Positions 1,019 through 19,985 of a DNA stretch of 26,702 nt are shown in pieces. Numbering within the stretch: the first letter of the stretch is position 1; the number at the start of each line of letters is the position of its first letter. The stretch is from a virus (Duplodnaviria; Heunggongvirae; Uroviricota; Caudoviricetes), in the IMG/VR virus record IMGVR_UViG_2660238061_000004; one strand, given 5' to 3'. A program made the translations under genes and the position numbers. The notes under the pieces were generated by a model. It was not told the DNA's origin, made no database searches, and saw only the letters and a list, made by a program, of their open reading frames with translations.

Positions 1019-1537
1019 TTAGATGTTGTAGGCGATTTCAACGTTGCCGTGGGTGGTGGTGGCGCTGCTGTCCCCCGGCCCCATCACTTTGGCGATGGTC
1101 AGCTCCGGGGTGTTTTCTGCGGTAGCGTCTGGCTTGAGCACCACTGAACCAAGAGGACTGGAGGCAGTAGGCTCAGCAACGCGGATATAAACCTTGTCGC
1201 CCTTCTTGGCGGTACCGGCCTGTGCTGCTGGCACCGCTACGGCGATATAACCGCGCTTGAGGGCATCGCCGGTATAACCGCTCGTGATGCCCAGCGCGCG
1301 AGCGTCGGTCGGGTTGGTGGTCGGGTATGGGCGAATGAAGATACCGTCAACATCGTCGATATCATCACCAGCTTCCAGCGGCACAAATTTACCGTTGAGG
1401 TTTTTGCCAGCCAGACCATACGAAGGGAATGGCTTAGCGGCATCGAGAATCACCGGCTCTGCGGTGAGGTCCTGCGGGCGAGTTACGGCACCAGGGAAGC
1501 CCAGCCCCATGCGAGTTAGATAAGCTTTACCAGCCAT
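1019..1537 (-). CDS. capsid-associated structural protein (decoration or DUF2190-like)
   Basis: 172-aa ORF immediately upstream of the capsid gene on the same strand, Gly/Pro/Ala-rich; assignment is positional. Confidence 0.45.
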   Translation of the reverse strand: MAGKAYLTRMGLGFPGAVTRPQDLTAEPVILDAAKPFPSYGLAGKNLNGKFVPLEAGDDIDDVDGIFIRPYPTTNPTDARALGITSGYTGDALKRGYIAVAVPAAQAGTAKKGDKVYIRVAEPTASSPLGSVVLKPDATAENTPELTIAKVMGPGDSSATTTHGNVEIAYNI

Positions 1538-1548
1538 TGTTGGTTACC

Positions 1549-2802: not shown

Positions 2803-2904
2803 GGGTTACCTGCTGAATTGCGGGCAGTAAAAAGGCCGCGCAGTAGCGGCCACTGGGGTTTATCTAATGCTTTAGCACGAGCTCTTCACCACTAATTTTC
2901 GGCC

Positions 2905-2933
2905 TTGACACTCTAAATTCGATAGTGAAAACA
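2905..2933 (+). promoter_or_regulatory. putative sigma70 promoter for the plus-strand moron
   Basis: Exact TTGACA at 2905..2910; the downstream -10 is poor (AAAACA / TAGTGA region), so this is weak. Confidence 0.25.
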
Positions 2934-2969
2934 TGAACATTGATTCCCACCACCAAAAGGAGTTTTGAA

Positions 2970-3167
2970 ATGAGCACTAAAGCAGAATTGTTAGCGAAGA
3001 TGGATCGCATGGCAGATGAGTGGTCACGCACCACTGGCCTCAACAATGACTATGTTGAGGGCGAGCGTTACACCAAAATCAAAGACCAACTTGCAGCGCT
3101 CGGGGTGAACGCTCGCATTGATGCCGTAGAGGGTAATTCAGCTCAATTCAGGGTTTATGTAGATTGA
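2970..3167 (+). CDS. small hypothetical protein (moron inside the head module, opposite strand)
   Basis: ATG at 2970 preceded by AAAGGAG seven nt upstream; 65 aa (MSTKAELLAKMDRMADEW...); stop TGA 3165..3167; followed by a hairpin plus T-run. Confidence 0.55.
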   Translation: MSTKAELLAKMDRMADEWSRTTGLNNDYVEGERYTKIKDQLAALGVNARIDAVEGNSAQFRVYVD

Positions 3168-3182
3168 GAAAGCCTCCCTCCC

Positions 3183-3210
3183 AGCCATCCTTGTGATGGC
3201 TTTTTTATTT
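3183..3210 (+). terminator. rho-independent terminator after the moron
   Basis: agccatc-cttgt-gatggct stem-loop followed by TTTTT; no T-run on the opposite strand. Confidence 0.5.
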
Positions 3211-3962
3211 CCTGGGATTTGGCACCTGCACTTCCGGCCAGCATTTGCAGTTCGGCAGGCACCCGGCGTGCCCGGTCATACCGTCCAGCGTCGGCGGGTT
3301 ATCCCAGCGCACAAACTTATCTTTCATCCAGCGATGTGAATCGCGCGTTCCGGCCCCTTCGATGCGCCACCAGTAGCCCTCAGAGCCAATCGACTCAGCG
3401 CGCGCCTGGGTGAGCGCTGTCGTGGCCCGGCCGATTTCGGTGCGGGCGATCATCTTCGCGCGGCTCTCTGCCACGTCGCCGGACTCCATAATCATCCGAT
3501 AGAGCGCGTCGGGGCGCTCACCGTTTATGACGGCTTCCATTGCGCGCTCCTGGATGTCACGAACGCGGTCGGCAGCTTCCAGCGGAAGAGATTTAATCAG
3601 CTGCACCTGCGGGATACGATGTCCTGAGCCACGAACCCCACCGGCGTATTGCCGACAACATCCCGCAGCCCCTCAGAGATTTCCTGCGACACAGAGCGCC
3701 ACTGGTTCCACTCCTCCTGCTCAACCTGCAGGAACATGCGTTTGGCTACCCGGTCGGCCCAGTCGTCAATCAGCAGCGAGTAATCTATCAGCCGGGCGCT
3801 AACCTGCTCGGCGCTCGCTTCCGAACCATCGTAGGAGCCAGTTACTATCGCGCCGCACTGACGCGCTATCTCCTGTAGACTTTTCTGATACTGGCGCTCC
3901 GATTTGCGGCGGAGGTTCGGTTTCAGATTCAGCCTCCTCCCATTCTGCTTTGGCATCTTCAA
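3205..3962 (-). pseudogene. phage head morphogenesis protein (Mu F / SPP1 gp7-like) split by a frameshift near 3600
   Basis: Track ORFs 3597..3962 (121 aa) and 3205..3606 (133 aa) are adjacent in different frames and together give a full-length protein; the downstream frame stays open upstream of its first start. May be a sequencing error rather than a true pseudogene. Confidence 0.55.
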
Positions 3963-5277
3963 TATCCTTGTCGGTGATAGAGCCGCCGATACCGATGATG
4001 TCGGACAGGTTGCGCAGGTCGTTCAGCGCGGCATGCTGCGGCATACCGATGTCGCGCACGGCAGTCGCCAGGGCGGTGGCCACGTTGCTGGCCATTGTCG
4101 CCCGGTCAGTGTCCGACATCTCCCAGAGCTTGTTGAACTCGAAGGTGAAGTCTTCCGGCAGGGGCTGTCCGAACAGGGAGCGCCAGGAGATATCCAGCAG
4201 CCAGCGGATGTGTCGGCGCAGGCGGCGCTCCTGCAGCGAGTTAACGCGGCTGTAGTAGTTCTCCAGATCCCCGTCGCCGGTGCTGAATCCGGATGGTGAC
4301 TGCCCGAACAGGCGCACCAGCGGGATCCCAGTTGCGCCGGATACCTGCTCAGCAAAGCGCAGGATGACATCAGCGATCCCGGCGAACGAGTAACTGTGGG
4401 TCTGGAACTCGTCCGACTTATCCATGATGGTCATGCCTTCTATGGTCTGGAACTCACGGATCATGTCCATGTGCTTCATCAGACCATCTTCCAGCGTGCC
4501 GCCAGTGGCCAGAATCTTACGCAATCCGTCAATGCTGTAGGTACGCAGGTGCGCCTTGTGAATCAGCTGTGTAGTGCCGACGGTTGCGGTATCGAACGCC
4601 TGAATGCGCTCGTAGATACGCTCGACTACCGACATTCCCCAGCCGTTCTCGGTCTGCGCCTGCTGGAATGGCAGTGTGTCACCTTCCATGCGGATAATGC
4701 GGCTGTGGTGAATCTTCCACGGGGGGATCCCCTGCTGGTTGGTCACCACCTTGTAGTACTTCGGCTTGCCGAACTCCGGGCCGTAATCGGTCACCAGGTC
4801 GTAATAGCTCGGGGTTACCTGCCAGCGGTCGAGGCACATCACCCCCTTGAACTGACCCTCTTTGATGCGGTCGAGCTTCAGCGGAGTGGACATGTCCTGC
4901 CCTTCCAGCAGCACCACCAGCAGCGCGCCGCCGTACAGCCGGGACCACTTCAGGGTGTCGTTCAGTCCGTCCCAGATGGCAATGTCATCCCAGAACATCT
5001 CAAATTTACCCTTCTGTCCGGGCTCGAGCTTGGAACTGATGTTTATGCCCTTGCGGGTCATATCATCGGCCATAGCGTCTACACCGGCGCCCACCAAAAA
5101 CGATGAACGATACGCAAATTCCAGCTGTACGCGGTTACGCGAGATATAGCCAGGCTGATAGCTCCCACCGCTCTGGATGTTGGATGTATAGCCGCCGAGC
5201 TTAGCCGCGAAGTTGTTGTACCCGTCACCAGTCCGGACGGGCTTTTGTGCGCCGCTCTGGCGTTTCTTTCGGGACAT
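3799..5277 (-). CDS. phage portal protein
   Basis: 492-aa ORF directly after terminase large; ATG 5275..5277 with GAGGGG upstream; acidic C-terminal tail. The 3' end overlaps the next gene by about 160 nt, so the true stop may be earlier. Confidence 0.75.
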   Translation of the reverse strand: MSRKKRQSGAQKPVRTGDGYNNFAAKLGGYTSNIQSGGSYQPGYISRNRVQLEFAYRSSFLVGAGVDAMADDMTRKGINISSKLEPGQKGKFEMFWDDIAIWDGLNDTLKWSRLYGGALLVVLLEGQDMSTPLKLDRIKEGQFKGVMCLDRWQVTPSYYDLVTDYGPEFGKPKYYKVVTNQQGIPPWKIHHSRIIRMEGDTLPFQQAQTENGWGMSVVERIYERIQAFDTATVGTTQLIHKAHLRTYSIDGLRKILATGGTLEDGLMKHMDMIREFQTIEGMTIMDKSDEFQTHSYSFAGIADVILRFAEQVSGATGIPLVRLFGQSPSGFSTGDGDLENYYSRVNSLQERRLRRHIRWLLDISWRSLFGQPLPEDFTFEFNKLWEMSDTDRATMASNVATALATAVRDIGMPQHAALNDLRNLSDIIGIGGSITDKDIEDAKAEWEEAESETEPPPQIGAPVSEKSTGDSASVRRDSNWLLRWFGSERRAG

Positions 5278-5289: not shown

Positions 5290-6495
5290 TTATTGTTTGC
5301 CCAGGGCGGCCCAGACACCGAGATCGCCAACGCTTGTGATGTATCCATCCAGCGAGTAGCGCACGGCATCCCACAGGTGGTTATGCTTATCCACGACAAC
5401 CGGCAGCACTTCGCCGGTCATGCGGTCGGTTTTGTAGGAGTAAAGGCGCGCCTCATCGACCATGTGCTTACAGCGCTCATGGATGATGATTTCTTCGAAC
5501 CCTTTCAGGTAGGTAATGCCGTCCTCAACGCTCCCCGGCCATTTGGTAGCGCCGTCGATGATGAAGCCCTGACGCGAAAGATAACTGATGGTCTCCGGCC
5601 GGCTGCAGTCGCCGTGAATGGGCCATTTTCTGGATTCCGGGATGGAGTCATAGAACTGCGCCATTTCGTCCAGCTCGACGCCGACGCCGTAGGCTTCGTA
5701 CTCGATGTACAATCGGGTGCCGATAATGAAGCAACGGACCAGAGTGGATGGGTCGTTGGCGAAACCGAAGTCAGCCCCATAAAACAGGCGATCGGCTTCT
5801 TTCCACAGGTCGTCAGAGAATGCCTCAACCCGGTACTTGCCGGAGAAGATAACGGCCTCACTGAGCGCCTTCGGCAGCCCCAGCCAGATATGCTCGTAAG
5901 CCTCGAAGTCGATACGCTTGCAGTATTCCATCTCGTGCCTGAGCACGTCAGGGAAGAATGCGTTATCGCAGTAGTTGACGCAGGTAATAATCGCTCCGCC
6001 ATCAGGGGGATCGGCGCGGTGCCGCTCCATCATGGCGTAGGTCGGGTCGGTAGCTTCGCGCGGGTTGAACGACACCCACACTTCGGATTTATTGGCGCGA
6101 ACGGTCGGACCGAGGATGTCCCAGCTATCCTGCGATACGGTTTGCGCTTCCTCTACCCAGCATATTTTGATGCCGTGCATCGACTTAATGCTCTGGATGT
6201 TGTTGCGCAGACCTTTGAAGGTAAACCGCGTGCCGTTGCTGCCCTCTATCTCGTTGTTCTTGACCTTGTAGAAGTGCGCCAGGCCAAGCGAGTGGATTTC
6301 AGCGTCCAGCAGTGCCAGTACCGAATCGTTGATAGAGTTCTGGAACTCACGAGCGCACAGGATGATCATTGGCTCGATAGCGCCCAACAATACCAGCGCG
6401 CGGGCAATCTCTACCGATTTGCCGCCACCACGACCGCCATACGTCCAGCGCCAGCGGACAGAGCCTATCGGTGCGTCGTACAGCGTCCCGAGCAC
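5290..6495 (-). CDS. terminase large subunit
   Basis: 401 aa with Walker A GGRGGGKS near the N-terminus and nuclease-like C-terminal half; GTG start without a clear SD, so the start is uncertain. Confidence 0.85.
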
Positions 6496-7374: not shown

Positions 7375-7635
7375 ATGTCAGATGTAGAAAAAAGAATTGC
7401 CCATCTTGAGGATTTGGTTGAAGAGTTACAGTTACACAGCCACGCTTCTCGTGTTGCTATTGCTGTATTATCAACGGCTTTAAACGGAGTTGTGGGGAAA
7501 GAAACTCACCTCGGAGATGTTTATTTAGAAGGGGTTTCTAAGGCCGACCCCATCGAATTCGACATTCCCGCTAAAGATGGATACCTAGAAAAATTAAACG
7601 AGAGAGTCGCTGCTCTACTAGGCAGAGCACAATAA
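7375..7635 (+). CDS. small coiled-coil protein, AT-rich moron in the lambda bor position
   Basis: ATG 7375 with AAAGGAAC upstream; 86 aa (MSDVEKRIAHLEDLVEELQ...) with a hydrophobic stretch VAIAVLSTALNGVV; opposite strand to the flanking late genes; not Bor-like (no lipoprotein signal). Confidence 0.5.
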   Translation: MSDVEKRIAHLEDLVEELQLHSHASRVAIAVLSTALNGVVGKETHLGDVYLEGVSKADPIEFDIPAKDGYLEKLNERVAALLGRAQ

Positions 7636-8134: not shown

Positions 8135-8398
8135 TTATTTAAAATGAGATGTGCGTGAAAGTTCAACCTTCCATATATCAGCCTTATCCCGATTGCATTG
8201 CCCCAGCGCCGATAGCAGACTGACATTCAGATCCAGACTGTCCCCGTAGGTCAGCGGCTCGGGAATGGCAGGCTGTGGTGTTTCAGCTGTCAGGTTCGCC
8301 GGCAGGGGCACCACCGGCGCCTGCACGTAAACTGTCCGCGTATTCCCGCAGCCGGTTAGCAGCTGCAGCAGGCACAGGCCGACGAGCGCAATCATCAT
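8135..8398 (-). CDS. Rz1-like outer-membrane spanin lipoprotein
   Basis: Out-of-frame ORF starting inside Rz; lipobox LLTGC after a hydrophobic leader; proline-rich mature part; start taken at the internal MM (track ORF is 8135..8464). Confidence 0.55.
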   Translation of the reverse strand: MMIALVGLCLLQLLTGCGNTRTVYVQAPVVPLPANLTAETPQPAIPEPLTYGDSLDLNVSLLSALGQCNRDKADIWKVELSRTSHFK

Positions 8399-8675
8399 CC
8401 GCAACAGCCACTTTGATATCTGCCTGGGCTCTCTGTGACTCCAGTGCGATCTTGTTCTTTGCATTCTGGTTCGCCTCTGAAATGGCGTTGATGATACTCA
8501 CGGCCCGAATCACGTTCGCGGTGACAGCATTCGCGGTCTCAGCCTGCTGTTCTGCGCTATCGGCCCGCTCCTTTTCGCTACTGGCTTTGTCGCTGTAATA
8601 CCATGCCGACCAGCACGCCCCGCCGAACAGGCAAAGGAGGAATATGGCAATCGCAATGATGTGACGAGCTTTCAT
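8283..8675 (-). CDS. Rz-like inner-membrane spanin
   Basis: 130 aa with an N-terminal transmembrane segment and a coiled-coil/charged periplasmic part; start overlaps the endolysin stop. Confidence 0.65.
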   Translation of the reverse strand: MKARHIIAIAIFLLCLFGGACWSAWYYSDKASSEKERADSAEQQAETANAVTANVIRAVSIINAISEANQNAKNKIALESQRAQADIKVAVADDDCARRPVPAAAANRLREYADSLRAGAGGAPAGEPDS

Positions 8676-9208
8676 TTATCGAGCCCCCAGCATGCCAACG
8701 CGCTTTCTTGGTCGCGGCGTTCCACCTGACCGAAGCATCCGTTCTTCTGCCCCTTGGTTAGCCGGCAATCCCGGCCGCCATCTTTTATCCACCAGCGGAT
8801 CGCTTCGCATGCCCCTTTACGGTCACCGGCATTGATGCGCTTATAGAACGTCGAGGGGAAGCACTTACCGGGCCCGATGTTATACGGGCAGAAAGAAGCT
8901 ATTCCGGCCTTTTGCGGTTCGGTCAGCGGCACCCTGATATTGCGTTCAACCCAGGCCAGCGCTTTATTTCGCTCAACGGCATTCACCTGGTCACATTTGG
9001 CCTGCGTCAGCTTCATGCCCTGGCGAACTGGTTTACCATCTACCAGCGTGGCGCCGCGGCAAATAGTCCAGACGCCGCCACCGTCCTGATAAGCAATCAG
9101 GCTGTTGCCTTCCTTCTCATTCAGGAACTGATCGAGAATAACGGGCGCTGACGCACCGGCGAGGATAAGACCTAATACCGCAGCGCTAAGCTTTGATCTG
9201 TCAGCCAC
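8672..9208 (-). CDS. SAR endolysin (phage 21 R-like lysozyme)
   Basis: Lysozyme E...D...T catalytic region (EGNSLIAYQDGGGVWT) after a weakly hydrophobic signal-anchor-release segment (LSAAVLGLILAGASAPVIL); GTG start at 9206..9208 overlapping the holin stop (TAGTG) with GGGGGG upstream. Confidence 0.85.
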   Translation of the reverse strand: MADRSKLSAAVLGLILAGASAPVILDQFLNEKEGNSLIAYQDGGGVWTICRGATLVDGKPVRQGMKLTQAKCDQVNAVERNKALAWVERNIRVPLTEPQKAGIASFCPYNIGPGKCFPSTFYKRINAGDRKGACEAIRWWIKDGGRDCRLTKGQKNGCFGQVERRDQESALACWGLDK

Positions 9209-9423
9209 TATTCCCCCCTGGCGGCTTTGCGCCGGTCCTCTTTGATTTTGAAATACAGGTTTGTCAGATACGTCAGCAGCCCGAACACCAGGCTGCCAAG
9301 CACACCAATGGCTGCCCACTGCGATGGTGACACCTGGTCAAGCAACTGCAGGCTCCAGTAACCAGCGTTAGTCGCTGATGCACCATAGGCGATGCCAGTG
9401 GTTAGTTTTTCCATGCGTAACAT
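9208..9423 (-). CDS. class II holin, S21-type pinholin with dual-start motif
   Basis: 71 aa [23 protein letters not shown]...; two TMDs, charged C-terminus, Met1 and Met4 separated by a basic residue as in phage 21 S. Confidence 0.85.
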
Positions 9424-9521
9424 GCTCTCACCTCCGATTATTTCGGGGTGCTATGTGTAATGGGGATCAGGCTCTCGGGCTGCATTAACAACAAGGCTTG
9501 TTGAGGAGGTTTCCCGGAGCC

Positions 9522-9550
9522 TGAAAAAGAAAAGGCCCGCGTATGCGAGC
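9522..9550 (-). terminator. candidate terminator in the late leader upstream of the lysis genes (tR-prime-like)
   Basis: Imperfect GC-rich stem ggcccgcgtatgcgagcc with a T-rich tract on the minus strand, about 100 bp upstream of the holin start. Confidence 0.3.
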
Positions 9551-9806
9551 CTCTATAAATTCTTTGCCACTTCCCGGAGTGGCCACGCTCATGCCCTTGA
9601 GCTGCTGTCGCATCATCGCCGCTTATCACCGGTGCGCGTCTGGCTTTCGCGCTGCTTTACCGGAGCTATTTTTAATCTATGAACCCTGACCCGTCACTAC
9701 ACAGGCTCGCTCAATGGCGACTCGGGGCAGCATCATGACTGCTGCATTGCCTTTCGGCTACGGTGTGTCCGTTCTACTCTACATTTTCATACCCTCCAGA
9801 AACGGC

Positions 9807-9837
9807 AAAGCCCCGCGGGGTTAACCGCAGGGCTTTA
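9807..9837 (-). other. near-perfect 12-bp inverted repeat between the Q-position gene and the holin
   Basis: aaagccccgcgg-ggttaa-ccgcagggcttt; weak T-run on the minus strand; could be a terminator or a protein-binding site. Confidence 0.3.
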
Positions 9838-9931
9838 AACGAAGGCAGTAACCCATCGTTGGAGAGAAATTAACACAGATTCGGGAAAAGTAAATAGCTC
9901 ACGATAAAATCGACAGCGATTAATTGGTGCT

Positions 9932-10762
9932 TTATCGAGTTATTGCTCGCAGTTGCGATTCGGCCCACGCTTCTTCCATGTCGAATTTGGTGATCAGCCG
10001 GTCGTAAAACGGCTTCACTGACTTTTTCCAGGTGTCCAGAGTAATGGCGTCGGTAATAAGGCAAACAGCCGCATATGCCTCAGTCGAGGGGATCCGCTCA
10101 TACCCGCGCCCGCCGCAGCGCTTGCAGTCGGCCATCACCGGCGCGCCCTGCTTTTCTGTCAGCGTCTTGCTGACAGCTTTTCCGCGCCCCTGGCAGTCAT
10201 TACATGCGCAGCTGACGACCTTCTTCCCTTTGCAGGCCGAGCACAGCACCCGGGCCACCTCTTTCACCTCACGCCGATTCTGATGCTGCGAAGGGATAAC
10301 CTTCAGCCCCCATTTTTTTGATTTTTGAATGATGTCTTTTGCGCAGCCAGAGATGCTGGTTTTCATACTAAAAACGTCAGCCTCAATGAACCCCTGCCCT
10401 GCGCAACATTCGCACCTCTTGACGCTGGCGGCGCTGCGGGAATAGTCCTCAAAAGCGAAGGTAGCAAGCTGGCGCATCACCAGCGGTTTAACCCCAGCGT
10501 CCAGTTTGCGCAGGGCAGCCACGCTATCGCATTTTGTCAGCGCATACTGGGCCAGCAGCTCGATCGCTCTCTCCCGATCGTTGTTGCTGATGCCCATCTT
10601 TCCGAGAAAGGCACTGTAGCCCATGGCGGCGCGTTCCTGGGTCATGCCCATGGCTGCCATGATGTCCGTTCCGGTCAGCGAGTCGGAGGCCGTAGCGCGC
10701 GGAGAGTCGCTAATCAGCGTCGATTTGGCGAAGTGGTATTTCACGGTGTTTTCGAGGTTCAT
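9932..10762 (-). CDS. late-gene antiterminator Q candidate with CxxCxGxG zinc-finger repeats
   Basis: 276-aa ORF between rusA and the holin, the position Q occupies in DLP12/lambda; four CxxCxGx(G) motifs. Assignment is mainly positional. Confidence 0.55.
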   Translation of the reverse strand: MNLENTVKYHFAKSTLISDSPRATASDSLTGTDIMAAMGMTQERAAMGYSAFLGKMGISNNDRERAIELLAQYALTKCDSVAALRKLDAGVKPLVMRQLATFAFEDYSRSAASVKRCECCAGQGFIEADVFSMKTSISGCAKDIIQKSKKWGLKVIPSQHQNRREVKEVARVLCSACKGKKVVSCACNDCQGRGKAVSKTLTEKQGAPVMADCKRCGGRGYERIPSTEAYAAVCLITDAITLDTWKKSVKPFYDRLITKFDMEEAWAESQLRAITR

Positions 10763-10895
10763 GCAGCAGCTCCTGCCAACTGGTTAATGCGAATAAAATT
10801 GCGAAGAATGCGGTAGTCCACCAGCACCGAACCCGGGCGGCGATAAATGCGGAGGCGTGTCCAGCGCATGCGGATTACCTCAATCAGTTCTGATG

Positions 10896-11258
10896 TCATA
10901 AGTCCCCCAGTTCGGTGATGGTCAGCTCCAGCCTGCCGCCCCTGACGACGGGCATCCGTATAACGCGGTAGTCGTCCACCAGCTGATCGTCCTGCCAGAA
11001 TCCGGCCTTAGTAAGCGCGTCGAACGCGGCCTTCTGCAGGTTGTCCAGGTCACGGCGGCGGCGGGCAGGCATATGGCACTCGATGCGAATCTTCACCGGG
11101 CCGGAGATGCCGATATCCAGCAGCTGGTCTTTGATGATTTGGGCCACGCGGTCGCGGTAAGCCTGCCCTTCCGTGCTGATGTGCGTACGCCCGCGATTGT
11201 GTCGGTAATAGCGGTTATTACTCGGTGGCCACGGCAATGTGATTTTGTACTCGCTCAC
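10896..11258 (-). CDS. rusA: Holliday junction resolvase RusA
   Basis: 120 aa from GTG ([26 protein letters not shown]...), matching DLP12 RusA as I recall it; track ORF is 10896..11387, start moved to the internal GTG that overlaps the upstream stop. Confidence 0.85.
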
Positions 11259-11545
11259 GCTTTCACCTTCCCCTCTTTCAGCCAGATAACCTGCGTGCGG
11301 GCCATGCCCTCCAGCGCGCACTCCTTTGCATAATCCGCGTCGACCAGGCGAGTGCGGCGGTCGATTTCGTCGTGACAGCTGCTGCATGCAATGGTGGCAA
11401 TCAGATCAGGCGGCTTAATTCCGGTACCGCACAGCCCGGCCAGGCGAATATGCGCCAGCACGCTTGTGTCTGGGTTGCCGTTGCACACGCCGGGGATCCG
11501 AACCTGACATTCGCGACCGCGCGCAGCTTTGCGTAAATCCGCCAT
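11255..11545 (-). CDS. ybcO: YbcO-like protein (DUF1364 family)
   Basis: 96 aa from the internal Met ([25 protein letters not shown]...[13 protein letters not shown]), Cys-rich, closely resembling DLP12 YbcO from memory; sits immediately upstream of rusA as in DLP12. Confidence 0.75.
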
Positions 11546-11547
11546 GC

Positions 11548-11754
11548 TCACCCCCAGACCTTCTGACGGAGTGACCGCGGCGTACGTTCCTGCCGGTGCG
11601 CCTCCGGCAGCCGGGCGCTGACGGTCCAGGTGACGTAATCGGGATTCAGGCTTCGCTCTACCTTCACGCCGCGGCGCCGGTATTCCGCCATGAGCTCGTC
11701 GGCCTGCTGCGTGGTGCACTCGGTGTGCTGGAACCATGTTTCTTTCATCGGCAT
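11548..11754 (-). CDS. hypothetical nin-region protein
   Basis: 68-69 aa ORF (MPMKETWFQHTECTTQQADELMAEYRRRG...) tightly packed between the DUF1367-like gene and the ybcO-like gene. Confidence 0.45.
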   Translation of the reverse strand: MPMKETWFQHTECTTQQADELMAEYRRRGVKVERSLNPDYVTWTVSARLPEAHRQERTPRSLRQKVWG

Positions 11755-12353
11755 CACCCCACGAAGCTCATGAGCTGCGCAGCGGCATTATCCGCGTCGC
11801 TACGGCTCTTGAATGCCCTGGACAGGATCCAACGCCACAGAACATCGAGTGCGGCCCTGTAGAGTTGCTGGAACTCGGTTTCGTCCATATTGGCGAAGGC
11901 GATGCTGCGGGGGTGTTTGCGGAGGGTGCCGTCAGGCAGCTGTATCGCGTCGTAGTGGCCGGATTCGATGGTTACCCAGGCGCGGTAGGCGTCGAATGAC
12001 TTGCAGGCGCTGATGCTGCCCGTGCGCTTATCAGCGATGCGCTCGAGATATTGCTCAGCGGCATCCAGCAGCGCCCCTTCGTTCCCGCCGTAGGAGGCCA
12101 GAAATCTGGCATAGCCGGTCACCAGCTTGCGTTCGTTGGAAGAGATCGCCCCGCCGGTTGGCTCCCAGTATTCGAACCCGAGGTTTAAAAGCGCGAAGAA
12201 GCGGCGGTGGAAAGCCGGATTGCGGACCTGTTTGAAGTCGGCTACCAGCACGGCGCCGAGTTTGATTTTTGATTGCAGAATATCGCTGGTCTCCGGCGTC
12301 GCGGGGATCAGGATTCCTGATGACTGCTTGATGAGTTGTAGTTCGTGCGCCAT
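11754..12353 (-). CDS. conserved phage protein, DUF1367-like
   Basis: 199-aa ORF (MAHELQLIKQSSGILIPATPETSDILQ...); size and position match the roughly 200-aa DUF1367 proteins of lambdoid nin regions, from memory. Confidence 0.5.
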   Translation of the reverse strand: MAHELQLIKQSSGILIPATPETSDILQSKIKLGAVLVADFKQVRNPAFHRRFFALLNLGFEYWEPTGGAISSNERKLVTGYARFLASYGGNEGALLDAAEQYLERIADKRTGSISACKSFDAYRAWVTIESGHYDAIQLPDGTLRKHPRSIAFANMDETEFQQLYRAALDVLWRWILSRAFKSRSDADNAAAQLMSFVG

Positions 12354-12387
12354 GGTTTCTCTCCGTGGCGCAGTAGGTTACGGTTGT

Positions 12388-12636
12388 TCAGACCGTTGAT
12401 TTCATATTATCAGAAGGTTGGGTTACCCGGTAGCCGAGACGGTTAATAAACTGCATAAAACCATTAGGAGTAAAGACCTCTTCATCATCCAGCAAAGGCC
12501 GCATAGAAACCATGCCATTGACGCGATAAATTAGATGCCTGCCCGATGAAGGAAAGCTAAACACCACGCAGCCGTCAGACCTTCTTACAATGTCATACCA
12601 GTTGTCTTCTGACGTTTGCAAAGCTGAATCACTCAC
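12388..12636 (-). CDS. small hypothetical protein downstream of the dinI-like gene
   Basis: 82-aa ORF (MSDSALQTSEDNWYDIVRRSDGCVVF...); same strand as and 117 bp after the dinI-like gene with no obvious terminator between them. Confidence 0.45.
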   Translation of the reverse strand: MSDSALQTSEDNWYDIVRRSDGCVVFSFPSSGRHLIYRVNGMVSMRPLLDDEEVFTPNGFMQFINRLGYRVTQPSDNMKSTV

Positions 12637-12753
12637 ATTTATGTTCTCCCTTCGAGCGACTAACAGACGCGATTAAAGATTGTCGGCAGCAGCATCAGAG
12701 GGTTACGCAAATTGCGGTATTCTGAAAAATGCGCGCCAGCCTTAAGCGCAATT

Positions 12754-12987
12754 CTAATAAAACCAGTCGTCAGCGCTTTCCCAGGTATCCTGGAGGATTG
12801 ATTCAATTTTCTTTTTATCGTCCTTGTCACCACCAAAAACACTTAACCCATCGGCCCCGGCACGGCGGATTGTGAGCCTGCAATTGTCATAGTGATCATT
12901 CAGGCGCTTAAGCAGTTCTTTCTCCAGTGCTGGTACTGCGCCTTTAGGAAGTTCTTTCATGCGATCAATGGTTAATTCAACTTTCAT
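12754..12987 (-). CDS. dinI: DinI-family protein
   Basis: 77 aa from the internal ATG (MKVELTIDRMKELPKGAVPALEKEL...ILQDTWESADDWFY) with the DinI C-terminal signature; GGGGG SD upstream; LexA box about 20 bp upstream. Confidence 0.8.
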   Translation of the reverse strand: MKVELTIDRMKELPKGAVPALEKELLKRLNDHYDNCRLTIRRAGADGLSVFGGDKDDKKKIESILQDTWESADDWFY

Positions 12988-13005
12988 AATGGCCCCCATT
13001 GCATG

Positions 13006-13050
13006 TACTGTGTTTTTATACAGTATACCTATGCGCGGAAATGATCAACG
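13006..13050 (-). promoter_or_regulatory. SOS box (LexA operator) overlapping the -10 of the dinI-like promoter
   Basis: TACTGTGTTTTTATACAGTA at 13006..13025 fits CTGT-N8-ACAG; on the minus strand TATACT overlaps the box and TTGATC lies about 15-16 bp upstream. Confidence 0.65.
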
Positions 13051-13094
13051 TTTTAAGAGCACAAATTGTTAATTTTCTGTCAGTTGTAAAAAAA

Positions 13095-13117
13095 GAAAAC
13101 CCGCCGTAGCGGGTTGA
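13095..13117 (-). terminator. rho-independent terminator for minus-strand transcription, left boundary of the AT-rich island
   Basis: aacccgc-cgta-gcgggtt perfect stem preceded by an A-run on plus (T-run on minus). Confidence 0.5.
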
Positions 13118-13478
13118 ATTAGCAGTGTTATATTAAGCGGCAATTTCTTTCTGCCGGCACAATCCCGAGAGATTCGCCCTCTGTATCGCATCATCAATGA
13201 GCACCTGTATGACCATGAGGCAAAGCGTTATCCAACTTGCATTCATCTTTTTCAATCAGCAAAGGAGTGGTTAGTGCTGTGAGTGGGCTTTGTTCACTTC
13301 ATGGTAGATAAATCAGCTATGGATAAGTGATAAGAGGTGAAATCAATCCGAATTAACAACCTGAAGCACATTAATCGGAACACAGATATTAAAATCCTAA
13401 AGTCTAGTAACAAATAGCCGATATGAGATATTGCTTATCAGTTTAAAAATCATCTATTGAAAAAATGGGGGGGAGGCG

Positions 13479-14042
13479 TTGAAGCGAGTAGAGCGCGATT
13501 TTATCTGTCTGTTTAATTGTGTGTGGTATCAAGATTTCCCTGTGTTCAAAGGTGAATATATCAACCGTTCCAACTGGACCATTCATGTTGGCCTGGTCAT
13601 GCGCGAGTGTGCAAAGTTAATGGGCGCAAGAACATTTTTTGAACAAGGCGGGCGTACCGATGCGGTCCTACAATATCCAGACAATCAAATTTTAACCTAT
13701 GTTGAGTGGGAGTATAATCAGGCAGACAGAGATAGCGTTAACGAGTTAGACAAACTGCTTGAAAAAAACGACAAGTGCTATTTCTCCACATTCATCTCAT
13801 ATTGTCAGCATGAAAACATCAATATTGTTATTGAAAAAGCAAGTAGAATATGGAGTGAAGCAAGCAGGCCTTTGATTTTTTTTCTTATCACCTATGAGCC
13901 TCAAACGAAAAAACGCCGCCATTTTTTAGAACTCAGAACTTATTTTTTCTCAAACGGCAAAAGAAAACTAGTTCGCAAACAACCTGCGCTTCCATGGGAT
14001 ATTGAGCAACGAAAATACAATGTCGAAGAAGATGCAGGATAG
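13479..14042 (+). CDS. orphan 187-aa protein, AT-rich, function unknown
   Basis: TTG start with strong GGGGGGAGG SD 3-4 nt upstream; roughly 40 percent GC by eye versus a GC-richer backbone; opposite strand to the surrounding phage genes. Confidence 0.5.
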   Translation: MKRVERDFICLFNCVWYQDFPVFKGEYINRSNWTIHVGLVMRECAKLMGARTFFEQGGRTDAVLQYPDNQILTYVEWEYNQADRDSVNELDKLLEKNDKCYFSTFISYCQHENINIVIEKASRIWSEASRPLIFFLITYEPQTKKRRHFLELRTYFFSNGKRKLVRKQPALPWDIEQRKYNVEEDAG

Positions 14043-14081
14043 AAGAGACATAAGGTTTTCACGACAGTCTCGTTCCGAGCC

Positions 14082-14463
14082 CTAACTAAAATATTCTGTT
14101 CGGAGCAACCAAATAGCTCTGGCTTTGCTGTGACCATGTTCGCGGTACCAACGCCTCTCTAGGTCCGCTTCTCGCTCATGGTGGACCAAAATCAAATCTA
14201 AAATGACGTGGCTAAGCGGGAGTACATAGTGAATGACAGGATGCTCCGGGCAGCACCATACTAATTCAGTTCCCGTCAGAGGTAGGCGTTGCTTCATGAT
14301 GGGATGAGCGCTCCCTCCAGACAATCCATGCGACAGCCGCCTCCCATGATATATATCCATTACCGCCATTTTTCGCTCTGCGGAGATTAACTGCATCACC
14401 AAACCTTTCAATGATGAATTTTTCAAATTCTATGCGTTTTTCTTCGTCGATTGTTGAATCCAT
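14082..14463 (-). CDS. pair of overlapping small ORFs (65 aa and about 71 aa) or one frameshifted gene
   Basis: Upstream frame MDSTIDEEKRIEFEKFIIERFGDAV... ends at 14266; second frame has a GGAGGGAG-ATG start near 14303 and runs to 14082 (MKQRLPLTGTELVWCCPEHPVIHYV...). Confidence 0.35.
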
Positions 14464-14530
14464 ACCTTCCCCAGAAGAGTCCTACGAATCGCTCTTATTG
14501 CATAAAAAATAGCATATACAATAGAGAGTG

Positions 14531-14550
14531 AAAAACCGACGTAGCGGGTT
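14531..14550 (-). repeat. degenerate second copy of the 13095 hairpin element
   Basis: aaaaaccgacgtagcgggtt versus aaaacccgccgtagcgggtt at 13097..13115; same orientation; stem is imperfect in this copy. Confidence 0.35.
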
Positions 14551-14742
14551 AACTTTATGTTACTCATGAGTCTTGTCTCGCTGCGACTTAAAAGCGGAAC
14601 ATTCTCGCGCAAGTTGCGTTGCTAAAGCTACGGGGTTGAATGGCTCTCCATGCCCATTTAAGAAGGCATGCGGTGTGTAGTTGAACGTTATTTAAAACAC
14701 AGATAGAATCAAGAAAAATCCTAAATAAATGGAATATTGTTT

Positions 14743-15123
14743 ATGGCTAAGAAAATCGCATTACTGGGCTTTTCTGCTCTTTTTGTTGCAAGTGTTGCTT
14801 TTGCTGAAACGACAAGTAACTGGGTTGAGGTTACTACAGCTGATGATGGCATTTTTTCAGCAAAAAAAGGCACATTTAGAAATGTAAAAGGTGATTCATC
14901 TGCCTTGTTCATGTATCAAACAAAAAATAAAAAAGTAGAGTACTACAAAGTTAGTATTAAAGATGCCGACTGTGATAGTGGATATGGGGAGATAAGATTC
15001 TTCTATATGGATGGGAAATTAGCTTTCAAAGGTGATTATGTTGCTGATGGGAACAGTGTTGGCGCAGGTATTGGTGATTTTATGTGTGGAGTCAGAATTG
15101 GACTTAACACACAAAAAAGTTAA
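14743..15123 (+). CDS. small secreted/periplasmic protein, function unknown
   Basis: MAKKIALLGFSALFVASVAFA signal peptide (AFA-E cleavage motif), about 105-aa mature domain with two Cys; AT-rich; no strong SD. Confidence 0.55.
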   Translation: MAKKIALLGFSALFVASVAFAETTSNWVEVTTADDGIFSAKKGTFRNVKGDSSALFMYQTKNKKVEYYKVSIKDADCDSGYGEIRFFYMDGKLAFKGDYVADGNSVGAGIGDFMCGVRIGLNTQKS

Positions 15124-15163
15124 ATGAGGGGCATTTGTTAAAAAACAATAGCCCCACATTAGA

Positions 15164-15365
15164 TCAATATTGGCTCCGGCATTTCTGGATAAAAGCTTCT
15201 ATGCTACGGCGCTCATAGCGAACAATCTTAGCGCTGAACTTTACACGGGGCCAATGTAGACCGGTGTCGGTGTTCTGTATTCCATTTACATAATGTTTTT
15301 TGCGTAATTCCCAGCTTCTGGCATACCTCGCCCGGAGTGAGGAGATCATCAGGTTGCTCAGTCAT
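15164..15365 (-). pseudogene. AlpA-family HTH regulator remnant, frameshifted
   Basis: ATG 15363..15365 with GAGG upstream gives MTEQPDDLLTPGEVCQKLGITQKTLCKW...; the track ORF 15164..15349 in another frame continues with GLHWPRVKFSAKIVRYERRSIEAFIQK, which fits the C-terminal half of an AlpA-type protein. Confidence 0.4.
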
Positions 15366-15537
15366 GTTATGCCTCGCTGTTATCTGGGGTGATGATTAGC
15401 AGCTTCCAGATGGCTGAGACATACATAGCCTGATGTTTCGCATCGACTAGGGCATTATGCATGTCACCTTCAAACGGCATGTCCCGAGTTCTCCCTTTTC
15501 GCCGCTTTCGCGTCGCATATTCTCCAAACGGTATTTA

Positions 15538-16095
15538 TCAATCATTACTGTTATCCTCGCAGTAGTAGTGCCGTCCCTCTGGGTCAGTAGATACATGTCC
15601 GCAGATATCGCATTCAATTCCAGGAAGCACCGATTCTGACTGCGCTTTGATATGCAGTCGCGGTTCACCGTCTTTCGGCTCTGGCCACTGGCGGTTTTTG
15701 TTAACCGCCAGCTTTTCTACCATCGCCAGGGTAATCTGCTTATCACTGATACCGGCACGACGTTGCGCATCCCATAACAGGAATTGCATGTCAGCCCATT
15801 CGCTCATCTCGTCTGGTTCCGCAGCAGCCTCGATAGCTTCTTTGGAAAGGTGCTTCAGCGGACCAACTGGACCGACATCGCCGAATGTTTCATCTGACCA
15901 TGCTGCATGTTCACAGCGTACCTGCTCACGGGCTATCGACTCCAGAACCCCATCAATCACCTTCACTGCATCAGCCATTGCGTAGCCGAGATTACCGCCG
16001 TCGCTTTGTGCTGCTGCTTTGCTGAGTATTTCGCGTATCTGGTGCAAGCGATCAAGTGATACAGGACCGTGCGCCGGGTGGTTGTTAGTTGTCAT
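15538..16095 (-). CDS. phage protein with MazG-like NTP pyrophosphohydrolase-type region (DUF550-like) and C-terminal Cys cluster
   Basis: 185 aa; segment EMSEWADMQFLLWDAQRRAGISDKQITLAMVEKLAVNKNRQW resembles MazG/DUF550 proteins from memory; CDICGH...YYCEDN at the C-terminus. Confidence 0.45.
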   Translation of the reverse strand: MTTNNHPAHGPVSLDRLHQIREILSKAAAQSDGGNLGYAMADAVKVIDGVLESIAREQVRCEHAAWSDETFGDVGPVGPLKHLSKEAIEAAAEPDEMSEWADMQFLLWDAQRRAGISDKQITLAMVEKLAVNKNRQWPEPKDGEPRLHIKAQSESVLPGIECDICGHVSTDPEGRHYYCEDNSND

Positions 16096-16098
16096 GGG

Positions 16099-16299
16099 TT
16101 AGTCCTCTACCTTGTTTCCGCAATGCGGGCAGTAATTGAACTTATGGGCGAATCCAGGATGCGGAACGGCAAAGCGTTTGGTTTTCTCGTTCCAGTCAGC
16201 AATTACGATTTCAAAATTTACGACCGCATTAGCCCAGTCACTGGAAAGAACTGGCTGCGACCCAATCAGGCCGACTATACAGCGATTACATTTTTCCAC
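16099..16299 (-). CDS. small zinc-ribbon protein
   Basis: 66 aa with CxxC at each end (CNRC ... CPHC); tightly packed in the operon. Confidence 0.45.
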   Translation of the reverse strand: MEKCNRCIVGLIGSQPVLSSDWANAVVNFEIVIADWNEKTKRFAVPHPGFAHKFNYCPHCGNKVED

Positions 16300-16303
16300 T
16301 GAC

Positions 16304-16498
16304 TCACACCCCCTTCACGCCAATGCCAGCAGTAAATCGCGACGGTGACCAATCGCAATATGTGTTCGACTCCGTGTGTCCAAAAATTGCTTTACAACGA
16401 TGGATATGGTGGCAATTACCACATGTTATGCCAGCCGGTAATCGCATCTTGTCGGGATCGGCTGGGTCATAATTCAACGCCAGTTTTTCGGTTGTCAT
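16304..16498 (-). CDS. small Cys/His-rich hypothetical protein
   Basis: 64-aa ORF (…GITCGNCHHIHRCKAIFGH…) with 4-nt overlaps to its neighbours. Confidence 0.4.
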   Translation of the reverse strand: MTTEKLALNYDPADPDKMRLPAGITCGNCHHIHRCKAIFGHTESNTYCDWSPSRFTAGIGVKGV

Positions 16499-16833
16499 GC
16501 TGGCATCCTCCCCACGATATCTATAACCCGACGCATAACCGCACTTCCCCGAAAATCTGCTGGTAACTCAATCAGAGGCTTACTCGAACCGTATGAGAAT
16601 CGTTGGAGATCGAAATCAATTACAGCCTTTGGGTCCCTGAACAAATCTAGACGACCGTAACGAATGAGTTCGCCGCGTTCGGCTGCTACGCGGAAATACT
16701 TCTCAGCAGTCTGACGATGCAGCGACAACATCTGTGATGCCTCGCTAACGGTTAAGCGTCCACGGATTTTCACCTCTTCGATGATCACCCGGATAAGTGC
16801 CGCCTGCTCTTCTGGTGTATTTGGTCTTGGCAT
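16495..16833 (-). CDS. hypothetical protein with putative HTH, immediately downstream of O
   Basis: 112-aa ORF; LTVSEASQMLSLHRQTAEKYF looks HTH-like; sits where P or a helicase loader would be but is too small for one. Confidence 0.45.
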   Translation of the reverse strand: MPRPNTPEEQAALIRVIIEEVKIRGRLTVSEASQMLSLHRQTAEKYFRVAAERGELIRYGRLDLFRDPKAVIDFDLQRFSYGSSKPLIELPADFRGSAVMRRVIDIVGRMPA

Positions 16834-16835
16834 GC

Positions 16836-17747
16836 TTACCCCCTGAATCCGGGTGGGATTGTTTTGTCTGGCTCAGAAATGCGGTTCACATCCCTGCCCG
16901 TTTTGCGAGCGTTGAGAGCGAACTTCGGTTTAAACAGTCCCTGGTACCCGTTGGCGATACTGGTGTTGATCACATCAACGGGGTCATGCCCAGCGTCCAG
17001 GCAAGCCTTGAGCAACTTGAATGCTTTGGTGACCGTCATTTCGGTCTTGATGGCTTTGCCAGACTGTTGGCGGTAGGCCACCCACTCACTCCAGGACACA
17101 GAATCAAGCCACTCAGGAACGGGAATCGTCAGCGGGTCAAACTTACCCTTCCCCTTTGGGGGATTAGAGGGGGTTAGATCTGTATTTATATTTGTATTTG
17201 GAAGAATGTCTTTGGTGTTCCCTGTTTTCAGGGATACCTCTCCCTGTTTTTGGGGATGGTTATCCCCGTTTTCAGGGATGATTGAAGGGGTAAAATTGCT
17301 ATCCCTGAATTCAGGGATGGTAATAACCCATGTGACAACTTCAGCAGCAGGAAACACCGCTGGACACTTCATGCAATTTGGCTTGGTATACGCCCATTTA
17401 TCCAGGCTGGTATTAATCCCTATGTATCTGGTTTGCCCAATGCGGCGCAGGATGATGATGTTCCGATAGGCAAGGCTCAACACGGCTTCAGAGACGTGTT
17501 TCACCTTCAGCGTCGTTTTATCTGCAATGAGGCTATTGGCGATGCGGTCAGAACTCTTAGACCAGCCATAGGTCAGACGAACGATAGCATTCAGCACCCG
17601 GAACTCGCGCCCGGATAGTTCGACGATACACAGGGCATCCTGAATCTGGTTGGCCAGGCGCAAATAGCCTTTCTCCAGTTCAGCCATGCTGCTCTCCTGT
17701 TTCCCCTGCTGTGTGGGGAATTTGAATATTTCAGCGGTATTTGACAT
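16836..17747 (-). CDS. replication initiation protein O-like
   Basis: N-terminal region (MSNTAEIFKFP...REFRVLNAIVRLTYGWSK...) resembles lambda O from memory; iterons lie inside the gene; start taken at the internal Met (track ORF runs to 17780). Confidence 0.8.
   Translation of the reverse strand: MSNTAEIFKFPTQQGKQESSMAELEKGYLRLANQIQDALCIVELSGREFRVLNAIVRLTYGWSKSSDRIANSLIADKTTLKVKHVSEAVLSLAYRNIIILRRIGQTRYIGINTSLDKWAYTKPNCMKCPAVFPAAEVVTWVITIPEFRDSNFTPSIIPENGDNHPQKQGEVSLKTGNTKDILPNTNINTDLTPSNPPKGKGKFDPLTIPVPEWLDSVSWSEWVAYRQQSGKAIKTEMTVTKAFKLLKACLDAGHDPVDVINTSIANGYQGLFKPKFALNARKTGRDVNRISEPDKTIPPGFRG
17178..17212. other. AT-rich tract next to the iterons (candidate unwinding element)
   Basis: gatctgtatttatatttgtatttggaagaatg immediately beside the iteron array, on the side expected for the direction of O transcription. 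Confidence 0.45.
17219..17317. repeat. origin iterons: four 16-bp palindromic repeats
   Basis: tccctgttttcaggga (17219), tccctgtttttgggga (17241), tccccgttttcaggga (17263), tccctgaattcaggga (17302); spacing 22, 22 and 39 bp; resemble lambda ori iterons. Confidence 0.7.
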
Positions 17748-19175: not shown

Positions 19176-19457
19176 GTGTCTAAAGAAACAACCGTCGAAC
19201 TTATGCATCTTAATGATGTAATCGAAGCGAAAAATTTCATCGAGACCAATGCTGACGGTGTCGTAACAATCGGCACACAAAATGCCGGTTACGAAGTTTA
19301 CAATTTTGTGTTCCTGAATAGCAGCCCGATCATCGGTACGGATAATGCGGATATAGTCGTCAAGGGCATGCAGCGAACCAAAGTTGTGTCTGTGACTTTA
19401 AGCAAACAAAAGGCTTATGATTTTTATCAATCCTTAAAAAGTATGTTTGAGGAATAA
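19176..19457 (+). CDS. orphan 93-aa protein, first gene of the rex-position pair
   Basis: GTG start with GGAGGA SD; AT-rich; immediately downstream of the repressor on the same strand. Confidence 0.5.
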   Translation: MSKETTVELMHLNDVIEAKNFIETNADGVVTIGTQNAGYEVYNFVFLNSSPIIGTDNADIVVKGMQRTKVVSVTLSKQKAYDFYQSLKSMFEE

Positions 19458-19463
19458 TAATTG

Positions 19464-19985
19464 ATGGATGCGGCTCAATCATCTCTTGGTGAAGGGAAGT
19501 TATTGATTGCATATTCAGACCATAGCGGAGCTACAGTAGGCTTAGAGTTTTCATCAGTAGCTTCGAGCCAAGCAACCTTCCTTATGGGTGCTTGTAGTTT
19601 TGCCGCTTCGGATAAACAAAAACGGATTGTCACATCAGTTGCTATGGATGATACTGAAATCATTCATACGTCAACTGAAGATGGAGGTGACGACATGGAA
19701 AAGAGATTGGCTATTCTTGAGGTTGAAGTTGCCCACATCAAGAAAGATGTTGCCGAGATAAAAAACACAGTTTCAAAAGTTGATACGACAGTGAATTCAC
19801 TGGACAAAAATATGGCTGTAGTTTTGGAGAGGCTGTCTAGTATCAAAGAGTCTGTAGACAAAAAGCCCTCATCAGACACAGTGGACAAGAAAATCTCTGA
19901 TGCTAAATTGGCGATTCTCTTAGGTGTCCCTGCGATTATCGCCATTGGTACAGGGCTGTACAAAGCTTTTATGCACTTCTTTTAG
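19464..19985 (+). CDS. orphan 173-aa protein with coiled-coil and C-terminal membrane anchor, second gene of the pair
   Basis: ATG 19464 with GAGGAA SD; heptad-like middle (MEKRLAILEVEVAHIKKDVAEIKNTV...); hydrophobic C-terminus LAILLGVPAIIAIGTGLYKAF. Confidence 0.55.
   Translation: MDAAQSSLGEGKLLIAYSDHSGATVGLEFSSVASSQATFLMGACSFAASDKQKRIVTSVAMDDTEIIHTSTEDGGDDMEKRLAILEVEVAHIKKDVAEIKNTVSKVDTTVNSLDKNMAVVLERLSSIKESVDKKPSSDTVDKKISDAKLAILLGVPAIIAIGTGLYKAFMHFF

Follow-up and report, generated by a model that had tools for sequence, protein, structure and literature searches.

An AT-rich accessory region, probably composite, with a predicted nuclease-fold gene at the ren/nin junction of a Rac-like lambdoid prophage

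The 26,702-nucleotide stretch of viral DNA analysed here, referred to below as the window (IMG/VR record IMGVR_UViG_2660238061_000004, Caudoviricetes), is a Rac-like lambdoid prophage, and the present report concerns the AT-rich region at its centre (approximately 13030-15540), in which the gene of an orphan 187-amino-acid (aa) protein with a predicted nuclease fold is found. This region is probably a composite accessory ('moron') region built by recombination, rather than one functional system. The examined stretch was 99.9% identical to prophages of Escherichia coli ES7, PSJ-22 and NCTC11023. According to the RefSeq annotation, the ES7 prophage ends with a tyrosine integrase adjoining kch, RecE and RecT are encoded by the prophage, and the minus-strand gene order begins with a cro-like regulator, YdaT, a replication protein, DUF977, two small genes and DUF550. 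Past the variable region, this order continues with DinI, a phrog_340 gene, DUF1367/NinB, DUF1364, RusA, YlcG and Q, which precede the lysis, terminase and head genes. The variable stretch lies at the ren/nin junction, between the replication genes and DinI/NinB. In phage mEp237, the interval from P to DinI is taken up by the gene of a Ren-like protein, one further small gene and part of a methyltransferase gene, and therefore the site corresponds to the ren/nin junction of lambda.

Read along the minus strand in the direction of early transcription, the region comprises the DUF550 gene, a cargo segment designated here slot 2, a degenerate terminator repeat and the gene of a 65-aa protein, followed by a second cargo segment on the opposite strand (slot 1), the probable 3′ remnant of a methyltransferase gene, a terminator, an SOS-box-like palindrome and finally DinI. 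Slot 2 contains the gene of a 126-aa protein, convergent with the operon and preceded by its own promoter-like site. An initial annotation of this DNA had regarded the interval as a single island, bounded by a terminator and a regulator remnant and carrying genes on the strand opposite to the surrounding operon. Instead, two slots parted by the native 65-aa gene were found, the right part being the relic of an integrase-excisionase (int-xis) junction with one intact passenger. The ORFs listed in that annotation were indeed present, but the opposite orientation held for the 187-aa and 126-aa genes only, since the 65-aa open reading frame and the excisionase and exonuclease (exo) remnants are co-oriented with the operon.

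The AT-richness ascribed to the region was borne out by its guanine-cytosine (GC) content, which was 41.7% across 13155-15486, against 57.5% in the left backbone (8300-12400) and 52.2% in the right one. It is the lowest-GC region of the window, and among windows of the same size (mean 52.3%, standard deviation 4.6) equally low values were observed only where they overlapped 13155-15486. The accessory genes themselves showed 39.9% and 36.5% GC, compared with the window mean of 52.3%. The AT-rich zone sets in at about 12400 and takes in DinI (43.9% GC), and therefore the compositional and the comparative boundaries differ. As to the latter, more than 100 E. coli prophages share the left arm, with homology ending at 13154 or, in a few of them, at 13181, and in comparison with a Citrobacter prophage (L070) the left homology runs to 13277; these positions replace the left boundary formerly set at 13030. 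In COL60J, the left arm is 99.8% identical up to 13154 and then gives way to a different, island-free right arm, and the entire stretch is present in just 3 of 5426 complete E. coli genomes. Together with the exchange of cargo among sister prophages described below, these observations agree with the proposal that the region holds horizontally acquired accessory cargo at a variable site.

Cargo slot 1 (13278-14163, plus strand) is a 0.9-kb cassette formed by the 187-aa gene together with its own upstream and downstream DNA. Window positions 13274-14187 showed 86% identity over 914 bp with an enterobacterial chromosomal locus near cysS and folD (L016/L017), where a 96%-identical protein is encoded by an isolated gene. 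On either side of the cassette, L070 matches the window at 12760-13277 (90.7%) and at 14164-14556 (89%), and between these flanks it carries 2.8 kb with AriA (E = 3.5e-33) and AriB (E = 3.4e-13). The pair AriA/AriB, which is named PARIS in PMC9122126, lies at L070 7010-8914 in this Citrobacter freundii prophage, at the boundaries of slot 1. Other states of the slot were sampled, rather than surveyed, from IMG/VR loci containing the 65-aa gene. The 187-aa cassette occupied it in L074-L080; in L081 (8373-8753) and, by matching ORF coordinates, in L084, its place was taken by an orphan CdiI immunity gene (PF24172, E = 5e-34); and arsR, arsB, arsC and an FMN reductase were found in L083 (8348-11224), with the same ORF layout in L085. 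In L069 and L082 the slot was empty, the 65-aa gene being followed directly by DinI. Moreover, in E. coli prophages of the KL53 type, RosmerTA was located between DinI and DUF550 (RmrA, E = 2e-106; RmrT, E = 3e-26; L008 2079-3813). Presence, absence and replacement of cargo at identical boundaries were thus observed among sister prophages, along with a composition that departs from the backbone, and slot 1 takes defence as well as other fitness cargo, being not defence-specific. The anti-phage or host-fitness role suggested initially is plausible, as this place is either empty in sisters or filled with PARIS, RosmerTA, CdiI or an ars operon. The adjacency of DinI and the gene at 15538, for which alignment to related prophages had been proposed as a check, was encountered in no relative examined, the empty state being that of L069 and L082.

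Slot 2 (14593-15486) is the int-xis end fragment of a Citrobacter-type prophage, with 93.5% identity over 894 bp to the Citrobacter prophages L012-L015 (L012/L013 6853-7743). In these prophages, the order is an integrase (465 aa, plus strand), the 126-aa gene (plus), an HTH_17 excisionase (66 aa, minus) and an Rv2179c-like 3′-5′ exoribonuclease (190 aa, minus), and then the early-left genes. In the window, the tyrosine integrase is represented by its last ~15 codons (14593-14641, plus strand), detected by tblastn of the L012 integrase (residues 451-465) and by DNA alignment. The excisionase-type HTH_17 gene (15164-15365, minus strand) is a pseudogene with a 1-bp insertion, one extra C at 15246, relative to the intact 66-aa gene of the Citrobacter prophages L012 and L014, and it matched the profiles phrog_4745 (E = 7e-13) and phrog_1553, an excisionase. 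The frameshift had been recognized from the start, but the gene had been taken for an AlpA-like remnant, and it is instead the excisionase of an int-xis junction beside an exo stub. No intact excisionase lies beside an integrase in the window, whereas the L012 homologue is intact and located beside int. The stub corresponds to the C-terminal 39 codons of the Rv2179c-like exoribonuclease (15367-15486, minus strand; a RefSeq pseudogene; phrog_255 exonuclease, E = 1e-9).

Homology with the L012-type prophage stops at 15486. The right flank is formed by the DUF550 gene, coding for a dATP-dGTP pyrophosphohydrolase (15538-16095, minus strand; Pfam PF04447, E = 7e-41), of which the 5′ 150 nt (window 15948-16097) are 95% identical to L012 8896-9042, where the gene neighbouring exo has its 5′ end. 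In view of this shared 5′ end, DUF550, the exo stub, xis and the 126-aa gene are collinear with the end of the early-left operon of L012. It was also observed that other prophages have 5′ ends 95-98% identical to the first 150 nt of DUF550 on genes that differ from it (a 280-aa gene in L012, and L009), which indicates a mosaic joint inside the coding sequence. Around slot 2, no att-like (attachment-site) direct repeats were found.

The 65-aa gene (14266-14463, minus strand), co-oriented with the early operon, is backbone and not cargo, and it forms the native DNA between the two slots. Its homologues in Citrobacter prophages encode proteins of 63-66 aa with 75-86% identity, the length being kept despite divergence, and within the operon, with which they are also co-oriented, they immediately precede DinI (L069) or PARIS and DinI (L070). 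The protein gave a weak phrog_660 match, and its C-terminal half is similar to proteins encoded next to xis in SfV, SfII and SfIV. It belonged to what had been described as an overlapping pair of small ORFs, of which this conserved member stood, whereas the ORFs of 114 aa (14082-14426) and 60 aa (14430-14612) found no support; both were rejected for having neither homologues nor annotation, and the second crosses the recombination joint at 14593. A terminator-containing repeat of ~26 nt occurs twice in the window (13095-13120 and 14530-14555), the second copy being degenerate and 85% identical to the first. In L070, a longer form of ~100 bp is present twice (5543-5660 and 9087-9330), bracketing the 65-aa gene and the cargo. 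The repeat also includes the methyltransferase 3′ end, by RefSeq calls in sister prophages. Such a repeat may supply the homology for cassette exchange.

On the left, the backbone flank of the variable region is formed by a DinI-family gene (12754-12999, minus strand; Pfam DinI, E = 4e-26, and RefSeq), common to many E. coli prophages at 90-99% identity. Directly upstream of its start, a LexA/SOS-box-like palindrome that is almost perfect, TACTGTGTTTTTATACAGTA, was read at 13006-13025, matching the SOS-box consensus CTGT-N8-ACAG. Since this palindrome lies between the terminator and the DinI start, the phage DinI gene may constitute its own SOS-regulated unit, and not simply be part of the early operon. 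The intrinsic terminator, a hairpin with a T-run resembling those of the nin region, was detected by a terminator scan at 13098-13115 on the minus strand. The hairpin had been reported correctly, but it does not mark an edge of the island, because it lies inside DNA common to other prophages (to 13154). Next to it, positions 13133-13277 (minus strand) probably represent the 3′ remnant of a DNA (cytosine) methyltransferase gene, according to RefSeq pseudogene calls at the equivalent positions in KL53, ES8 and WEM25. Within the window, comparison with the full methyltransferase of L069 and a phage peptide search both left this remnant unmatched, its identification resting on the calls in sister prophages; the same sequence is also present in prophages without the 187-aa gene. 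Among the near matches in the phage database, DinI alone was found, in mEp237; the stretch was unmatched in the plasmid database, and Rfam and tRNA scans of the region returned nothing.

The intact passenger of slot 2 is the gene of a predicted Sec-secreted protein of 126 aa (14743-15123, plus strand), which upholds the secreted protein of the initial annotation. It begins with the signal peptide MAKKIALLGFSALFVASVAFA, followed by ET, which is typical of signal peptidase I (AFA, then E), and the protein contains two invariant cysteines. The family is confined to Enterobacteriaceae, and no match for the protein was found in Pfam, NCBIfam, PHROGs or PADLOC. Upstream of the gene, a consensus scan located a sigma-70-like promoter match, TTGAAC-17-TAGAAT (14681-14709, plus strand), which is a pattern match only and is largely conserved in the Citrobacter copy, with one difference in the spacer and another in the second hexamer. 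The gene is normally located between int and xis, and this intergenic position is a classical moron site. From these features, the protein would be a putative periplasmic lysogenic-conversion factor. Membership of the Protein E/surface adhesin family was considered and discarded, given 5% identity, no Pfam match and no lipobox. Protein E of Haemophilus influenzae is a surface adhesin lipoprotein, whereas the 126-aa protein, with its predicted signal peptidase I cleavage, is not a lipoprotein.

Taken as a whole, the stretch appears to have been assembled from four or more pieces, each of its own origin, with joints between DNA of different origin at 13277/13278, 14163/14164-14187 and 14593. Slot 2 would have arrived by recombination between DUF550/Ea22-type genes present in both early operons, and a deletion would have followed. 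This proposal was made because early genes are shared and the prophage encodes RecE/RecT, and relaxed recombination of this sort is reported for lambdoid phages (PMC3945230). It counts against this account that the pathway was reconstructed from the joints. In addition, window 12755-16836 (DinI through DUF977, 4.1 kb) was 99% identical in L061, L067 and L068, which otherwise show no homology in their replication, nin and packaging modules (no megablast similarity of flanking modules), and about 11600-16100 was matched at 96% in L062 and L066. The exact 187-aa, 65-aa and 126-aa proteins were encoded on 721, 376 and 824 contigs, respectively; the Citrobacter freundii complex accounted for most of these, and the locus tags of the genes were consecutive. 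The identity of the block across these backbones indicates that the composite has become fixed in a mosaic module of roughly 4 kb moving by recombination. The exchange module at 12755-16836 exceeds the AT-rich stretch in size. The segment deviates in composition and is not conserved core, as the initial annotation expected of acquired DNA, yet 12755-16836 recurs at 99% in at least one otherwise non-homologous prophage backbone. Apart from the nuclease-like gene, this is ordinary lambdoid mosaicism.

Three other explanations of the stretch as a whole were weighed against a composite built by recombination. It is most unlikely that the whole 2.3-2.5 kb constitutes a functional module acquired in a single event, such as a toxin-antitoxin or abortive infection system made of the 187-aa, 65-aa and 126-aa proteins. 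Such a module would account for three genes with consecutive locus tags, co-travelling in several backbones and identical in hundreds of Citrobacter and E. coli contigs, but the co-travelling block spans DinI through DUF977, so that the linkage is that of one recombination module, and each gene is also found without the others: the 187-aa gene alone in chromosomes, the 65-aa gene by itself beside DinI or PARIS in the operon, and the 126-aa gene between int and xis. The three joints listed above likewise divide DNA of different origin within the supposed module. Very unlikely, too, is an origin of slot 2 in a small integrative element, that is, a satellite or integrative mobilizable element with its own int and xis, instead of in phage-phage recombination. 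The int and xis remnants do flank an intact passenger gene, although just 15 codons of int are left, the flanking repeats were missing, and the segment, including exo and the DUF550-type 5′ end, is collinear with the early-left end of a full lambdoid prophage (L012, with Ea22, ParB-like, DUF2303 and other genes). A further explanation, that the stretch is decaying junk made of recombination relics with no gene functional at present, is improbable, even if four relics can be counted (what is left of the integrase, exonuclease and methyltransferase genes, and xis with its frameshift) and the copies are too similar for a test of purifying selection. Against it, the 187-aa and 126-aa ORFs are both intact beside broken genes and full-length, their families extend without truncation over 52-96% and 52-98% identity, and the block has spread to several backbones.

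Within this composite region, the 187-aa gene (13479-14042, plus strand) starts with TTG preceded by a GGAGG Shine-Dalgarno sequence, and the status of orphan ascribed to it initially was upheld in Pfam, NCBIfam, PHROGs and PADLOC. At 90% identity the family formed 34 clusters, and a search of 1.84 billion proteins gave 183 representatives at 50% identity, nearly all of them single-domain and 185-220 aa long, from Pantoea, Citrobacter, E. coli, many Pseudomonas species, metagenome-assembled genomes (MAGs) of Dehalococcoidia and one Bathyarchaeia MAG. In an alignment of 70 diverse members, E55, E76 and E78 were invariant, and D61, T34, H36, W77, E89 and K92 were conserved in at least 90%. The Pfam scan of these 70 members returned isolated, single-member chance matches only, and none to the YaeQ model.

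The AlphaFold2 (AF2) model of the protein was confident (predicted local distance difference test, pLDDT, 85.9; predicted template modeling score, pTM, 0.84) and presented the alpha-beta-beta-beta-alpha-beta core of the PD-(D/E)xK (restriction-endonuclease-like) fold, which is the predicted fold of the protein. In this model, D61 precedes a predicted strand at 62-65 and E76-x-E78 lies within a strand at 71-81, a placement that would correspond to the usual positions of the PD...(D/E)xK motif, with Glu replacing Lys. The active site of BamHI is formed by D94, E111 and E113, with a Glu in place of the Lys. On these grounds, we infer that the 187-aa protein would be a metal-dependent nuclease with a BamHI-type D...E-x-E site. 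The best Foldseek match of the model was YaeQ, with a TM-score of about 0.38; the conserved motifs of this PD-(D/E)xK-like family are unlike those of the 187-aa family, which has no Pfam YaeQ match, and we know of no established defence role for YaeQ. In relation to BamHI, OkrAI, BstYI and BglII, the 187-aa protein presents no detectable sequence homology and no cognate methyltransferase, and it is smaller and more compact, so that the residue correspondence with BamHI is a putative one. An hhalign segment placing WY-x-D-F-P on the BamHI WYREKP around E77 was not relied on.

No methyltransferase was found beside the 187-aa gene in the window or in the eight contexts looked up, and 162 neighbouring ORFs from 31 loci revealed no conserved partner. 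These ORFs fell into 60 and 88 Pfam families, and the 25 commonest of them did not include a methyltransferase. The protein consequently does not fit a type II restriction-modification system of the BamHI kind, for lack of an adjacent methyltransferase and of sequence homology to restriction enzymes. It cannot be a free-cutting type II enzyme, because a methyltransferase partner was found in none of these contexts and such an enzyme would be lethal; therefore, if active, the nuclease must be restricted in substrate or activation. In comparison with type IV enzymes, the protein is stand-alone and single-domain, with no SRA, Mrr_N or similar match.

Tentatively, the most plausible role of the 187-aa protein in the lysogen is that of a nuclease which by itself provides exclusion or defence and whose activity would depend, for instance, on the modification or structure of DNA. 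Some homologues are located in suggestive surroundings. The homologue in L023 lies beside ParE/Phd, Mrr, BrxR and BrxA, that in L021 is accompanied by SRA-HNH and RES-Xre, and that in L019 is carried by an integrative and conjugative element (ICE) with SIR2. It was also observed that in L023, a Pseudomonas metagenome contig, the 61%-identical homologue is the fourth gene of an apparent operon (163-4799), after genes for a 134-aa protein, an IetA-like AAA ATPase (706 aa) and a WYL-WCX protein (375 aa), and before that of a 94-aa protein. This operon may be a multi-gene defence system with a nuclease of the 187-aa type as its effector. In its broadest form, the proposal is possible, if somewhat doubtful, that the 187-aa protein founds a new single-gene anti-phage family: a minimal PD-(D/E)xK nuclease with an E/D/E-x-E centre that needs no methyltransferase, would spare host DNA by depending on modification, structure or replication intermediates, and would travel as a cassette in lambdoid prophages, ICEs and defence islands of Proteobacteria.

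Several observations weigh against a defence role. The databases searched above, PADLOC-DB v2 among them (where the 65-aa and 126-aa proteins were unmatched as well), contain no match for the 187-aa protein, profile searches of PDB sequences with the family gave nothing relevant, and hhalign of the family profile against BamHI reported a probability of 1.2%. In Dehalococcoidia, the homologues stand amid housekeeping genes, namely a CoA-transferase (5 loci), Fpg and tRNA synthetases, although the recurrence of the CoA-transferase is probably within-clade synteny, and in several Pseudomonas and enterobacterial genomes the homologue is an isolated chromosomal gene. The non-defence cargo of the slot, the ars operon and the CdiI gene, means that location alone is no proof of defence. 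Besides, a simple scan upstream of the 187-aa gene revealed no sigma-70-like promoter, despite 205 bp of its own upstream DNA, and the island copies are nearly identical, too alike to gauge selection on the ORFs.

In line with these points, it could be argued that the 187-aa protein is not a defence protein at all, but a stand-alone enzyme of nucleic-acid processing or repair, or one with another host-fitness role, picked up by chance from a chromosome by a slot that takes any cargo. The isolated chromosomal gene that is its closest non-prophage relative, the housekeeping neighbourhoods of Dehalococcoidia with Fpg among them, the ars operon and CdiI gene in the same slot, the missing PADLOC match and the YaeQ top match in Foldseek all point in that direction. 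Such an explanation is a serious rival, only slightly less likely than a defence role. Against it, the AT content of the gene exceeds that of all the host loci examined, its spread has wide gaps (Pantoea, Citrobacter, E. coli, Pseudomonas, Dehalococcoidia and one archaeal MAG), mobile or defence islands make up 3 of about 8 contexts, and sister prophages have PARIS in this slot or RosmerTA in this interval. Altogether, the 187-aa gene is a reasonable but unproven single-gene defence candidate.

Variable slots for morons or defence genes are a well-known feature of lambdoid prophages, and the region is of this kind. As at the variable ren/nin site of lambdoid phages (lambda ren and ninA; mEp237), the position is between P/O and NinB/Q, and presence/absence polymorphism, AT-richness, independently oriented genes and terminators are observed; unlike there, a transplanted int-xis junction is present, which is unusual for the site, and neither the nuclease-fold protein nor the secreted, Protein-E-like protein is among the lambdoid morons characterised. 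Conserved flanks and alternative cargo, including PARIS (L070) and RosmerTA (KL53), are shared with the defence hotspots of P2-like phages and P4-like satellites (Rousset et al. 2022, PMC9122126), but the phage family and the site are others, and the place may also hold an ars operon or a CdiI gene, or be empty.

Two other AT-rich patches were observed in the window. One of them, with a GC content of about 0.41 (~19203-19985, plus strand), follows the cI-like repressor and contains two hypothetical genes of 84 aa and 173 aa (RefSeq, ES7), at the site that is classical for exclusion genes of the rexAB/sieB type. The other (GC 0.41-0.48; ~7375-7635, plus strand), between the small terminase gene and the lysis genes, carries a hypothetical gene of 86 aa that is oriented against the late operon and looks like another moron.

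The new element at this locus is a family with a predicted nuclease fold, uncharacterised and having no Pfam model, annotation or solved relative, at a place where sister phages carry PARIS or RosmerTA. The 187-aa gene is thereby one small, concrete and easily testable candidate of moderate interest, and if it proves inert, the region is an ordinary mosaic scar. For the biology of these phages, the region is a worked example of how lambdoid mosaicism is able to carry an int-xis passenger gene into the nin region, and it includes a cleanly delimited slot of Rac-like/lambdoid prophages of E. coli and Citrobacter, whose conserved flanks are the 65-aa gene and, at the opposite end, the methyltransferase remnant together with the terminator and DinI. 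Slots of this sort are a productive hunting ground for new defence genes.

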